A DNA stretch of 32,000 bases. Source: a virus. This document shows, piece after piece, positions 8,592-9,769 of the stretch. The notes beneath the pieces were generated by a model. That model was not told the DNA's origin. It saw only the letters and a program-made list of their open reading frames with translations, and searched no databases. The stretch is from the IMG/VR virus record IMGVR_UViG_3300045988_073130, positions 64,069 to 96,068 of that record; one strand, given 5' to 3'. Position 1 is the stretch's first letter, and the number at the start of each line of letters is the position of its first letter. The position numbers and the translations under genes are program-made.

Positions 8592-9359
8592 ATGAAACGA
8601 GAAGAGCTCAAACAACACGCGCAATCGCATTACGCAGACATTAAAGTGAGACTCAGGGAAGATACAGATCGCGCAATTATAAACTCTGAAATTTTTGGCC
8701 CCAATCTTCCTTTTCCGCAAAAACCGCGAGAAACCCACCATAATACCTTTTATCTTAAAGACCAAGATAGTGTATCCTGCCTATTCGGTTTAACCGATCG
8801 GAGCAAGACTGCGATCTTAAATTATGCAAGCTATAAACATCCAGGTGGTTATTTCCTTGGAGGTAGCTCTGCACAAGAAGAGGCATTGTGTCACGAAAGC
8901 AACCTTTATCCTATTCTTCTTGCTTTTGATGATACTTATTACGCATGGAATAGACAGAGACTGAATCGAGCCCTATATCTTGATAGAGCTATCTATACTC
9001 CTGATGTAGTCTTTGAAAAAGACGATAGTAGAAAATTAGCTGATGTAATTACTTGTGCTTCTCCTAATTATAGAACAGCACATACTTATCAGCAAGTTCC
9101 TCTTTCTCTAAACAATAGGATAATGGAAGAGAGAATTAATTTTATGTATCGAATTGCCGAGGTTAAGGGAGTGGAAAATTTAATCGCGGGAGCCTGGGGC
9201 TGTGGTGTTTTTATGCAAGATCCATCAACGGTCGCCACCTTGCTCGTAAACGCAGCCCGCAATTATAATATTCCAAATATCTATTTTGCGATTCCAAACC
9301 GCAATTCCCGCAATTTTAGAATTTTCTTGGAGGTTTTGGAAAAATGTTCAAGCAATTAA
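8592..9359 (+). CDS. Macrodomain protein of the bacterial PARG-like family (TIGR02452/DUF2263), putative ADP-ribose glycohydrolase
   Basis: Contains LNYASYKHPGGYFLGGSSAQEEALCHESNLYPIL, matching the GG..6-8..QEE PARG signature. The C-terminal AGAWGCGVF is typical of the family. ATG at 8592 follows GAAAGGAAA. Confidence 0.7.
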   Translation: MKREELKQHAQSHYADIKVRLREDTDRAIINSEIFGPNLPFPQKPRETHHNTFYLKDQDSVSCLFGLTDRSKTAILNYASYKHPGGYFLGGSSAQEEALCHESNLYPILLAFDDTYYAWNRQRLNRALYLDRAIYTPDVVFEKDDSRKLADVITCASPNYRTAHTYQQVPLSLNNRIMEERINFMYRIAEVKGVENLIAGAWGCGVFMQDPSTVATLLVNAARNYNIPNIYFAIPNRNSRNFRIFLEVLEKCSSN

Positions 9360-9769
9360 TTATTGCGAGGCGAGACTTAAATATGTCTCCAGGGAAACTT
9401 GCCGCACAAGTTTCCCATGCTTCTATTGCTTTTCTTTTGGAAAAGTTATATTGGGGAAGTAAAGAAGTTGTTAAAGAAAGAGACGGTCTTATGTATCATA
9501 TAGGAATAAGCCTCGATAGAGACTTATTCCATAATTGGATAGCGGAAGCGGAGACCAAAGTAGTTTGTAGAGCGAAGAATAAGAATGATTTGTTAAAGGC
9601 TGTTAAGATAGCAGAAGAATTAGGATGGGAAGAGAATAAGGATTATTGGCTTATCTATGATGCTTGTAGAACAGAGTTAGAACGCGAAGGCCCGGAAGGG
9701 ACTTTGACGTGTATTGGATTTAGGCCAATGGAGGCGGAAGAAATTGACAAAATTGGGAAGAAGTATTAA
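9344..9769 (+). CDS. pth2: Peptidyl-tRNA hydrolase, PTH2 (archaeal/eukaryotic) type
   Basis: Contains IIARRDLNMSPGKLAAQVSHAS near the N-terminus and DACRTELE...GTLTCIGFRP near the C-terminus, both PTH2 hallmarks. It overlaps the macrodomain gene by 16 nt. Confidence 0.7.
   Translation: MFKQLIIARRDLNMSPGKLAAQVSHASIAFLLEKLYWGSKEVVKERDGLMYHIGISLDRDLFHNWIAEAETKVVCRAKNKNDLLKAVKIAEELGWEENKDYWLIYDACRTELEREGPEGTLTCIGFRPMEAEEIDKIGKKY

Follow-up and report, generated by a model that had tools for sequence, protein, structure and literature searches.

A PARG-like macrodomain gene overlapping a PTH2-type peptidyl-tRNA hydrolase gene in an amber-recoded gut phage: plausible accessory anti-defence genes of known families

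Two overlapping genes in an uncultivated phage encode a PARG-like macrodomain hydrolase and a PTH2-type peptidyl-tRNA hydrolase, and their sequences suggest a plausible set of accessory anti-host-defence genes from known families rather than a new system. The pair lies in a 32,000-nt stretch of a viral record (IMG/VR IMGVR_UViG_3300045988_073130, positions 64,069 to 96,068), hereafter the window, which comes from a large siphovirus-like gut phage that is amber-recoded. Related contigs span 98–164 kb, a member of the Clostridia is the probable host, and deposited phages hold essentially no DNA-level relatives (one 220-nt match). The best explanation, to which we give about an even chance, is that the two enzymes are independently acting accessory hydrolases that serve the upkeep of RNA, tRNA and translation against host defence toxins, with a presumed role in counter-defence.

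The PARG-like gene (ORF A; bacterial type, TIGR02452/PF10021) occupies positions 8592–9359 of the plus strand and encodes 255 aa, and the PTH2 gene (ORF B; PF01981) follows on the same strand at 9344–9769 and encodes 141 aa. Both begin with ATG, preceded for ORF A by AAGGA at 8580–8584; a longer PARG starting from TTG at 8529 was ruled out, as 32 homologues all share the first Met of the ATG form. As the original prediction had pointed out, the two genes overlap by 16 nt; the overlap, from the PTH2 start to the PARG stop, reads directly from the plus-strand sequence at 9344–9359. An identical overlap is kept in the closest clade (loci L001–L005 and L021), where PARG is only 65% identical, so it is an inherited clade feature rather than a chance of a single sequence. 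A Shine–Dalgarno-like GGAGG lies within the 3′ end of the PARG gene (9329–9333, plus strand, 10 nt 5′ of the PTH2 ATG), where the 65%-identity clade shows a weaker AGG. In the window clade, translation of PTH2 probably starts in coupling with the end of PARG translation.

As the original prediction had it, the pair comes directly after folD and small Cys-rich genes. The folD-like gene (methylene-THF dehydrogenase/cyclohydrolase, 7229–8014, plus strand; PF02882, E = 4e-35; phrog_7320) carries four in-frame TAG codons and is full length only with TAG read-through; present in most loci of the lineage, it anchors the locus. Its stop overlaps, as TAATG, the start of a gene for a 117-aa protein with a Cys-rich C-terminus (8014–8367, plus strand), which is kept in relatives and has no Pfam or PADLOC match. 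A putative small Cys-rich ORF (8348–8548, plus strand) with one in-frame TAG is the last TAG-containing ORF before a long TAG-free block. A consensus scan placed a promoter-like site at 6844–6872 on the plus strand, in a divergent pair with one at 6836–6808 on the minus strand, and a terminator-like hairpin with a T run at 10054–10080 on the plus strand; these could be the start and the end, respectively, of a plus-strand unit comprising folD, PARG and PTH2.

By profile, modelled fold and catalytic motifs, ORF A is a bacterial-type PARG macrodomain with predicted activity. It exceeds the cut-offs of PF10021 (E = 3.5e-26, 92.8 bits, cut-off 23.5) and TIGR02452 (E = 3.6e-49, 167.7 bits, cut-off 50, model positions 21–264 of 266). 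The AF2 model (pLDDT 92.6, pTM 0.91) shows a macrodomain core plus the N-terminal helical extension specific to PARGs, and its top Foldseek matches are 3sig, 3sih and 5zdb/5zdc (TM 0.78–0.83, E down to 2.6e-17), whereas generic macrodomains reach a TM of just 0.4–0.55. The fold is shared with T. curvata PARG (3sig) and D. radiodurans DRB0099 (5zdb/5zdc) at a TM of about 0.8, although identity to solved PARGs is only 24–29% over the structural alignments. The sequence PGGYFLGGSSAQEE holds the signature of PARGs, in which QEE comes after a Gly-rich stretch; all 32 homologues keep Q95, E96 and E97, which line up with AQEE in D. radiodurans PARG, and the Glu of this signature is catalytic (PMC11833690). 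The diphosphate-binding loop, G200-A201-x-G203-C204-G205-V206-F207, is likewise invariant at its named residues in the 32 homologues and aligns to GAWGCGVF of 5zdg. Signature, loop and a length of ~255 aa are those of bacterial-type PARGs (3sig, DRB0099 and Streptomyces coelicolor SCO0909; DUF2263/TIGR02452), and a dN/dS of 0.147 against the 65%-identity clade indicates purifying selection.

Work on bacterial PARGs indicates what such an enzyme could act upon. They undo ADP-ribosylation of RNA at 2′-OH and 5′-phosphate positions and guard cells from the toxin RhsP2, whose targets are structured RNAs including tRNA; their chemistry is cleavage of the 1′′–2′ ribose–ribose bond, and among the panels tested the PARG type alone removed ADP-ribose linked to the ribose 2′-OH of RNA (PMC11833690). 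The D. radiodurans enzyme stands in an operon with RNA ligase and polynucleotide kinase (PMC11833690), and relatives of ORF A adjoin RNA ligase and kinase genes in the same way, whereas ORF A itself is phage-encoded and next to PTH2. The concept of a phage ADP-ribose-removing macrodomain as counter-defence is one that ORF A would share with phage orphan antitoxin-like macrodomains directed against DarTG (PMC11825919) and with a chimallivirus DarG2-like protein (PMC13309987). Those proteins, however, are of the DarG/NADAR type and act on ADP-ribosylated DNA bases, whereas ORF A is of the PARG type and has no similarity to known anti-DarT orphan antitoxins. Neither protein of the pair matches PADLOC-DB at E ≤ 0.01.

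ORF B matches PF01981 (E = 1.5e-21, 77.1 bits, cut-off 23, model positions 1–111 of 115) and the phage PTH2 family phrog_1866. It scores below the archaeal Pth2 equivalog cut-offs (79.4 versus 126 bits for NF003314 and 63.7 versus 82 bits for TIGR00283) and so belongs to a divergent phage/Clostridia PTH2 subfamily rather than being the archaeal orthologue. Its AF2 model (pLDDT 91.8) has the same alpha/beta fold as archaeal and eukaryotic Pth2 (S. solfataricus 1xty, A. fulgidus 3erj, T. acidophilum 1rlk and human Bit1/PTRH2 1q7s), with target-normalised TM values of 0.78–0.82 to 1rlk, 3erj, 1wn2, 1q7s and 1xty in Foldseek. In the alignment with S. solfataricus Pth2 (1xty), K18, D106 and T110 fall on its K18, D86 and T90, of which we take K18 and D86 to be the active-site Lys and Asp, so that equivalents of both catalytic residues are kept; across 30 homologues, D106 and T110 never vary, and conservation of K18 is at least 90%. 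Besides its sub-equivalog score, ORF B is set apart from archaeal and eukaryotic Pth2 by a beta-hairpin insertion of ~25 aa after helix 1 (residues ~33–57), which reaches ~80 aa in 198-aa relatives. The window copy is four residues shorter at its end, where QLYN is missing. Its dN/dS of 0.044 against the 65%-identity clade indicates very strong purifying selection. With Pfam cut-offs passed, confident models and motifs kept, the families, folds and catalytic residues anticipated for the two proteins are borne out.

The idea that a PTH2-type enzyme is unusual in a bacterial virus, by contrast, does not hold. PTH2 is known in jumbo phages (Iyer et al. 2021, PMC7824862), viral Pth clusters extend across viruses in the Viral AlphaFold Database (PMC12487901), and at least 141 confirmed PTH2 loci are found in IMG/VR, alongside phrog_1866. 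Cultured Xanthomonas, Stenotrophomonas, Pseudomonas and Enterococcus phages carry it as well, including XacN1, Xoo-sp13, Enterococcus H1 and VRE9, and Pseudomonas Astolliot, and most of these records have ordinary gene annotation. ORF B belongs to the same family as these proteins. For jumbo phages, the proposed role is RNA repair and ribosome rescue (PMC7824862), that is, ribosome rescue and tRNA recycling after an attack on translation, and the association of PTH2 with RNA-repair genes (RlaP, Thg1, AAA_33 kinase) is a further likeness. The differences are that the phages described here, judging from related contigs, are of ~100–165 kb, TAG-recoded and probably Clostridia-infecting, and that the lineage copy keeps to one locus, behind folD, and frequently has a PARG-like gene joined to it. 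The literature searched contains no experimentally characterised phage-encoded PTH2 or phage PARG-type macrodomain.

The distribution of the two genes bears on whether they act together. The lineage of the window phage is syntenic (terL, YonG_N, p356 and folD). At its locus PTH2 is near-constant after folD, and four arrangements occur: PARG then PTH2 (the window clade, L016 and L238); PTH2, a 78-aa gene and then PARG (L023, L031, L034, L035 and L037); PTH2 alone (ten loci, among them L012, L030, L032, L036 and L038–L042); and PARG alone (L019 and L117). PTH2 identity follows that of TerL, at 59% for the L023 type (TerL 92%) and 42% for L016 (TerL 73%). PARG identity does not, at 43% for the L023 type versus 52% for L016 and 38% between L016 and L023, so PARG was acquired or replaced independently. 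Both genes are decayed in L011 and likewise in P0152, and in L007 PARG is frameshifted beside an intact PTH2. Such loss and decay in relatives fits conditionally useful accessory genes; non-functional hitchhiking was rejected as the main reading given the low dN/dS values, though a minority of relatives hold decayed copies.

Across IMG/VR, the partner gene is present within 8 kb at 10 of 80 PTH2-centred and 8 of 80 PARG-centred loci, most of them in one lineage, and missing at the other 70 and 72, respectively. It is present at 6 of 66 genome loci, and outside the lineage ~97% of loci hold one gene only. Co-conservation, which had been put forward as a test of the pair, therefore holds only in part: the pairing recurs in the lineage and in a few other elements, but it is facultative rather than an obligate two-gene module.

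Elsewhere, some homologues lie beside genes of RNA repair or NAD. One unrelated locus holds RlaP, DHH, PARG, DUF4406, PTH2 and SIR2 (L149), another PARG, a PTH2 fusion and a metallophosphatase (L083), a third PTH2 and Thg1 with PARG 1.9 kb off (L227), and a fourth, L195, also has both genes together. In L017, the neighbour of PARG is a protein of 722 aa that combines a kinase (AAA_33), a metallophosphatase and a T4-type RNA-ligase domain. In 11 other phage loci, PTH2 has an AAA_33 kinase no more than 3.5 kb away, which is the only non-lineage neighbour confirmed against Pfam; clustering of non-lineage PTH2 and PARG neighbours gave mostly unknown proteins. By eye, metallophosphatase-typical motifs can be seen in common PARG neighbours. 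RNA-repair partners (ligase, kinase and nucleotidyltransferase) are thus present beside homologues in L017, L149 and L227. The window ORFs that were scanned include no recognisable RNA ligase, kinase or ADP-ribosyltransferase, so it is other elements that supply the RNA-repair context, and any shared theme may just reflect a common accessory-gene hotspot.

We therefore read the pair as two hydrolases that most likely act independently. PTH2, the old resident of the lineage, would split peptidyl- or N-acyl-aminoacyl-tRNA at the ester bond and so refill the tRNA pool upon damaged or stalled translation. PARG, repeatedly gained, replaced, moved or lost beside it, would cut ADP-ribose off ribose- or phosphate-linked substrates, and the targets would be ADP-ribosylation or tRNA damage inflicted by the host. 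The original prediction of a counter-defence or repair module is in this sense still the most plausible reading, with the amendment that the module is facultative and its genes probably act separately.

The same arrangement data bear on the alternative of a single coupled tRNA-repair pathway, in which a toxin ADP-ribosylates tRNA (for example at the ribose 2′-OH or a phosphate end), PARG de-blocks it, PTH2 clears accumulated or blocked peptidyl- or acyl-tRNA, and the coupling of two interdependent genes sets their ratio. The conserved 16-nt overlap fits this, as do the placement of PARG beside PTH2 at least three separate times in the lineage (with incongruent identities and differing gene order), co-occurrence in the unrelated L083, L149, L195 and L227, and joint decay in L011 and P0152. 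The range of PARG also covers RNA 2′-OH ADP-ribose, and RhsP2 hits tRNA among other structured RNAs (PMC11833690). Yet each gene often occurs alone, within the lineage and far more so outside it, order and spacing vary, the L007 frameshift leaves PTH2 intact beside a broken PARG, and the literature searched describes no phage-defence system that ADP-ribosylates tRNA; we consider a coupled pathway unlikely. Quite improbable, in our view, is a dedicated tRNA-end or RNA de-blocking cassette, for which PARG would have been recruited to the side of PTH2 several times if some Clostridia defence toxins ADP-ribosylated tRNA or ribosome-bound RNA and removal of the adduct had to go together with clearing of the dead-end peptidyl- or acyl-tRNA. 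A bolder variant would have the inserted-hairpin PTH2 subfamily hydrolyse acyl esters of ADP-ribose instead of those of tRNA.

The recoding of the phage invites a different role for PTH2. Late genes of the window phage require TAG read-through: each minus-strand late gene at 809–6807 contains 8–14 in-frame TAG codons. The pair sits at the junction between this late module and the TAG-free block, and neither of its genes contains TAG, so both would be translatable before or without the code switch. We infer early expression solely from this absence of TAG; as a counterpoint, the consensus scan suggests that the pair shares its transcription unit with folD, which does contain TAG. The contrast with folD that had been noted earlier (none versus four) is accurate, but it does not set the pair apart, because every plus-strand gene from 8592 to ~30.8 kb lacks TAG as well. 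For annotation, TAG-free accessory genes of amber-recoded phages can be read with the standard code, and neighbours such as folD cannot.

In a TAG-suppressed cell, host messages ending in TAG would be read through, ribosomes would stall on poorly decoded TAG codons or where an mRNA ends, and PTH2 could clear the peptidyl-tRNA that drops off or derives from quality control and so sustain the tRNA pools. A TAG-recoding signature in all 17 scored lineage loci, retention of PTH2 in nearly all lineage loci and the dN/dS of 0.044 are consistent with such support for amber recoding. However, when RF1 terminates translation at TAG the peptide is set free and no peptidyl-tRNA is left behind. Cultured phages, most with ordinarily annotated records, carry PTH2 too, and neither phAss-1 nor the TAG-recoded Lak phages gave a PTH2 match; around non-lineage PTH2 loci, the flanks are too short for a local TAG-recoding score and are expected to hold mostly early genes. 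A tRNA scan of the window found no tRNA, hence no suppressor tRNA, and no Rfam family matched; no release factor or aminoacyl-tRNA synthetase was found among the window ORFs scanned against Pfam, and 20 other ORFs of the TAG-free block gave no significant Pfam family, so that the window offers no functional context. The code-change module of recoded phages, composed of suppressor tRNA, release factor and aminoacyl-tRNA synthetase (Borges et al., preprint), is thus not adjacent to the pair in the window. A literature search for peptidyl-tRNA hydrolase together with stop-codon recoding returned no papers, the enzyme goes unmentioned in the recoding literature examined, and this account leaves PARG unexplained. 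The proposal that PTH2 rescues peptidyl-tRNA at poorly suppressed TAG codons is accordingly not supported, and we hold a role of PTH2 in amber recoding to be decidedly improbable.

Another possibility is that PARG acts on small ADP-ribose-derived molecules rather than nucleic acids, such as immune signals with a ribose–ribose bond or by-products of NAD-consuming defence, with PTH2 unrelated to it. PARG does cleave the 1′′–2′ ribose–ribose bond (PMC11833690), its neighbours elsewhere include SIR2, DUF4406, YpsA/SLOG and DUF488, and a jumbo-phage survey proposed that macrodomains degrade soluble ADP-ribose signals (PMC7824862). Nevertheless, hydrolysis of cyclic ADP-ribose isomers by a bacterial-type PARG is not reported in the literature examined, and the RNA ligase, kinase and RlaP contexts point to nucleic-acid substrates, making this very unlikely. 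It is highly improbable that PARG serves host takeover rather than counter-defence, as a toggle that undoes or restrains ADP-ribosylation by a transferase of the phage itself: phage ADP-ribosyltransferases and fusions of ADP-ribose writers and erasers are known (PMC7824862), but no ADP-ribosyltransferase-like protein is found in the 20 window ORFs scanned downstream of the pair or beside PARG in related loci.

Overall, neither family is new to phages, and their pairing is optional. The lineage forms a clean natural experiment, with a fixed locus, a PTH2 gene that is rarely missing and a PARG gene that has been repeatedly gained, swapped and lost. If PARG protects against RNA-ADP-ribosylating defences and PTH2 against those that acylate or cleave tRNA, this locus would mark translation-targeting defences that are active in gut Clostridia.

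The PARG-like macrodomain gene (ORF A, 8592-9359, plus strand, 255 aa) and the PTH2-type peptidyl-tRNA hydrolase gene (ORF B, 9344-9769, plus strand, 141 aa) lie in the window as originally predicted, and reading the sequence confirms that the 3' end of the first and the start of the second have 16 nt in common. Profile searches, the AlphaFold2 fold and intact catalytic motifs agree in making ORF A a PARG-like macrodomain. It scores 92.8 bits against PF10021 (cut-off 23.5) and 167.7 bits against TIGR02452 (cut-off 50), and among solved structures it is closest to the bacterial-type PARGs of Deinococcus radiodurans and Thermomonospora curvata. 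An AlphaFold2 model with 32 homologues as input (pLDDT 92.6) matches these two structures at a TM of ~0.8, as against 0.4-0.55 for generic macrodomains; the QEE catalytic triplet (Q95, E96, E97) is invariant in the 32 homologues, and the GAWGCGVF diphosphate loop is also invariant. An AAGGA motif lies 7 nt before the ATG. We rejected a TTG start at 8529, since all 32 homologues share the Met with which the ATG form begins.

The PTH2-type call for ORF B is upheld by its score against PF01981 (77.1 bits, cut-off 23), by the Pth2 fold of its model (pLDDT 91.8; target-normalised TM ~0.8 to archaeal Pth2 and human Bit1) and by K18, D106 and T110, which align to K18, D86 and T90 of Sulfolobus Pth2, residues that we take to be catalytic. 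The model carries an additional beta-hairpin at approximately residues 39-53. ORF B falls under the archaeal Pth2 equivalog cut-offs (79 versus 126, 64 versus 82), which places it in a divergent PTH2 subfamily, and it matches phrog_1866, a phage family without assigned function. In the window the protein ends in ...GKKY* (9755-9769): 12 nt (CAGCTTTATAAT) are absent relative to the otherwise identical IMG/VR contig 091188 (locus L001), so the protein stops four residues short of the usual family C-terminus, nearly all full-length relatives terminating in ...KKYQLY plus one further residue. Elsewhere, a PTH2 of 198 aa, containing a large insertion, adjoins an ABC-F gene on at least 24 contigs (5001-5597 in loci L013-L015); an integrase lies ~2 kb downstream, and the arrangement looks like an integrative element. 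The original prediction was wrong to call a phage PTH2 unusual, as the enzyme is known in jumbo phages, has phrog_1866 and occurs in cultured phages. A jumbo-phage survey described its archaeo-eukaryotic affinity and proposed ribosome rescue after tRNA cleavage (PMC7824862), and the Viral AlphaFold Database paper reports Pth homologues from a range of phages as well as eukaryotic viruses (PMC12487901).

A GGAGG Shine-Dalgarno motif (9329-9333, plus strand) lies inside ORF A, 10 nt ahead of the start codon of ORF B; because of this motif and the overlap, translational coupling from PARG to PTH2 is likely in the window clade. Five IMG/VR contigs and one NCBI contig share this 16-nt overlap, and among them is a clade with only 65% PARG identity. 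Measured against that clade (65% and 82% identity), both genes are under purifying selection, with dN/dS of 0.147 for PARG and 0.044 for PTH2. The overlap is nevertheless a local arrangement of the window clade and not a defining feature of the pair.

We delimited the lineage by synteny of terL, YonG_N, p356 and folD; across it, the region following folD occurs in six arrangements: PARG overlapping a downstream PTH2 by 16 nt (window clade, L021/L022, L185/L186); PARG then an adjoining 198-aa PTH2 without overlap (L016, L238); the reversed order, PTH2, a 78-aa gene, PARG (L023/L024, L031, L034, L035, L037); PTH2 without PARG (L012, L030, L032, L036, L038-L042); PARG without PTH2 (L019/L020, L117); and both genes decayed (L011). 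PTH2 identity tracks the terminase (59% in the L023 type, with TerL at 92%, versus 42% in L016, with TerL at 73%), whereas PARG identity does not (43% in the L023 type, 52% in L016, and no more than 38% when these two are compared with each other). On this pattern PTH2 appears to be the original occupant of the locus; PARG has been gained or replaced next to it at least twice and has often been lost. In L016, a 127-kb relative, DUF1653, DUF488-N3a and YpsA (SLOG) genes follow the pair (6390-7986), which suggests that the locus gathers accessory genes related to NAD and ADP-ribose. Copies full of small deletions occur in a minority of close relatives (L011, L007, P0044, P0046, P0049, P0133, P0152; P-numbers denote homologous proteins). 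L011 (5940-6700) has lost 207 nt of PARG including the catalytic region and keeps a PTH2 remnant between flanking genes that are still open; a 13-nt frameshift affects L007 close to the 3' end of PARG (window-equivalent 9288-9300), P0133 lacks QEE, and a number of PTH2 copies break off after ...EELG. These may be real pseudogenes or else assembly errors.

Beyond this lineage the two genes seldom occur together. PARG lies within 8 kb in 1 of 62 PTH2-centred viral loci (L083), PTH2 accompanies 1 of 71 PARG-centred loci (L149), and 3 of ~62 genome loci hold both (L195, L227, L243). Against an uncalibrated background, this exceeds a guess for two rare genes, and it also fits both genes favouring the same accessory islands. 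The recurrent neighbour theme is RNA/tRNA repair and NAD/ADP-ribose metabolism. L149 encodes RlaP (an RNA-repair Pol-beta nucleotidyltransferase), a DHH phosphoesterase, PARG, DUF4406, PTH2 and SIR2; L083 encodes PARG, a 275-aa gene product, an unknown domain-PTH2 fusion and a metallophosphatase. In L017, PARG adjoins a 722-aa protein that combines an AAA_33 kinase, a metallophosphatase and a T4-type RNA-ligase domain, and an AAA_33/KTI12-type kinase lies within 3.5 kb of PTH2 in 11 other phage loci. L227, from a Butyrivibrio MAG (5475-12700), runs AAA_15, DUF3226, an HTH protein, a 206-aa PTH2, Thg1, integrase, PARG and AAA_21; Thg1 and the integrase directly follow PTH2, with PARG 1.9 kb further on in the AAA_15/DUF3226/AAA_21 island. 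PTH2 and Thg1 here look like the edge of an integrated element adjoining a defence-island-like region that holds PARG.

Conservation of the pairing is thus partial, and PARG and PTH2 are not an obligate module. We favour, at even confidence, two independently acting accessory hydrolases that would sustain RNA, tRNA and translation under host attack. A truly coupled tRNA de-blocking pathway is unlikely: repeated juxtaposition and joint decay speak for it, but single-gene loci are frequent.

The window is part of a TAG-recoded phage. The minus-strand late module (1-6852: portal-like, 581-aa terminase-like and 356-aa zinc-ribbon-like proteins, and one whose homologues match the YonG_N family) has long ORFs only with TAG read through, with 8-14 in-frame TAG per gene between 809 and 6807. 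An ORF at 6910-7242 has six. The folD gene (7229-8014, plus strand), the constant anchor of the locus in most of the lineage, reaches full length (261 aa) only if its four TAG codons are read as sense codons; translated with the standard code, its frame offers nothing longer than an ORF of 195 aa (7403-7990). It joins the next gene through a TAATG overlap. The small Cys-rich ORF directly upstream of PARG (8348-8548, plus strand) holds one TAG, so PARG is the first gene of a plus-strand block without in-frame TAG that extends to ~30.8 kb. The pair does lack TAG, unlike folD, but this is a property of the whole ~22-kb block. None of 20 other ORFs scanned in the block had a significant Pfam match, and scans of the window found no tRNA and no Rfam match. 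A low-GC stretch at 18000-21400 (0.305-0.351), where the GC skew makes a negative excursion and convincing ORFs are scarce, breaks the block. A consensus scan marked a divergent promoter-like pair (6808-6872) and a terminator-like hairpin (10054-10080), which suggests a single transcription unit of folD, the Cys-rich genes, PARG and PTH2; TAG-free PARG thereby appears to share a unit with TAG-containing folD.

That PTH2 supports amber recoding is quite unlikely. A sounder rationale than the first-proposed rescue at poorly suppressed TAG codons would be the burden of stalled and non-stop ribosomes once TAG is read through globally. However, cultured phages whose database entries are annotated in the ordinary way also encode PTH2, and Lak phages and phAss-1 gave no hit for it, leaving an amber-specific role weak. 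Peptidyl-tRNA hydrolase is unmentioned in the phage recoding studies consulted, and we found no literature tying it to stop-codon recoding.

With two independent hydrolases, PTH2 would recycle peptidyl- or N-acyl-aminoacyl-tRNA and PARG would strip ADP-ribose from ribose- or phosphate-linked nucleic-acid sites; being in standard code, both could be made whatever the code-switch state. Lu and colleagues (PMC11833690) reported that D. radiodurans PARG is encoded in one operon with genes for RNA ligase and polynucleotide kinase, that bacterial PARGs reverse ADP-ribosylation of the RNA 2'-OH and also process ADP-ribosylated 5'-phosphate ends, and that they protect cells from the RhsP2 toxin. There is a slim chance that PARG acts instead on soluble ADP-ribose signals, and it is most improbable that it counterbalances an ADP-ribosyltransferase of the phage itself. 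A counter-defence role for the pair, as first proposed, would be reasonable.

Terminase identity is 44-50% to Enterococcus phages H1, VRE9 and EF1, Geobacillus virus E3 and the TAG-recoded gut phage phAss-1. The closest PTH2 proteins in genome assemblies (84-85%) are on ~148 kb contigs binned with Oscillospiraceae and Eubacterium MAGs, and genomes of Faecalibacterium, Lachnospiraceae, Christensenella and Butyrivibrio commonly contain this subfamily, which makes a host within the Clostridia probable. PARG-like proteins are present in Lak phages, Bacillus phage G (gp114), huge phages and giant viruses, and PARG and PTH2 both belong to already known kinds. The novelty is modest: a PARG-type macrodomain recurrently and facultatively recruited beside a PTH2 that is conserved across a lineage of TAG-recoded gut Clostridia phages.
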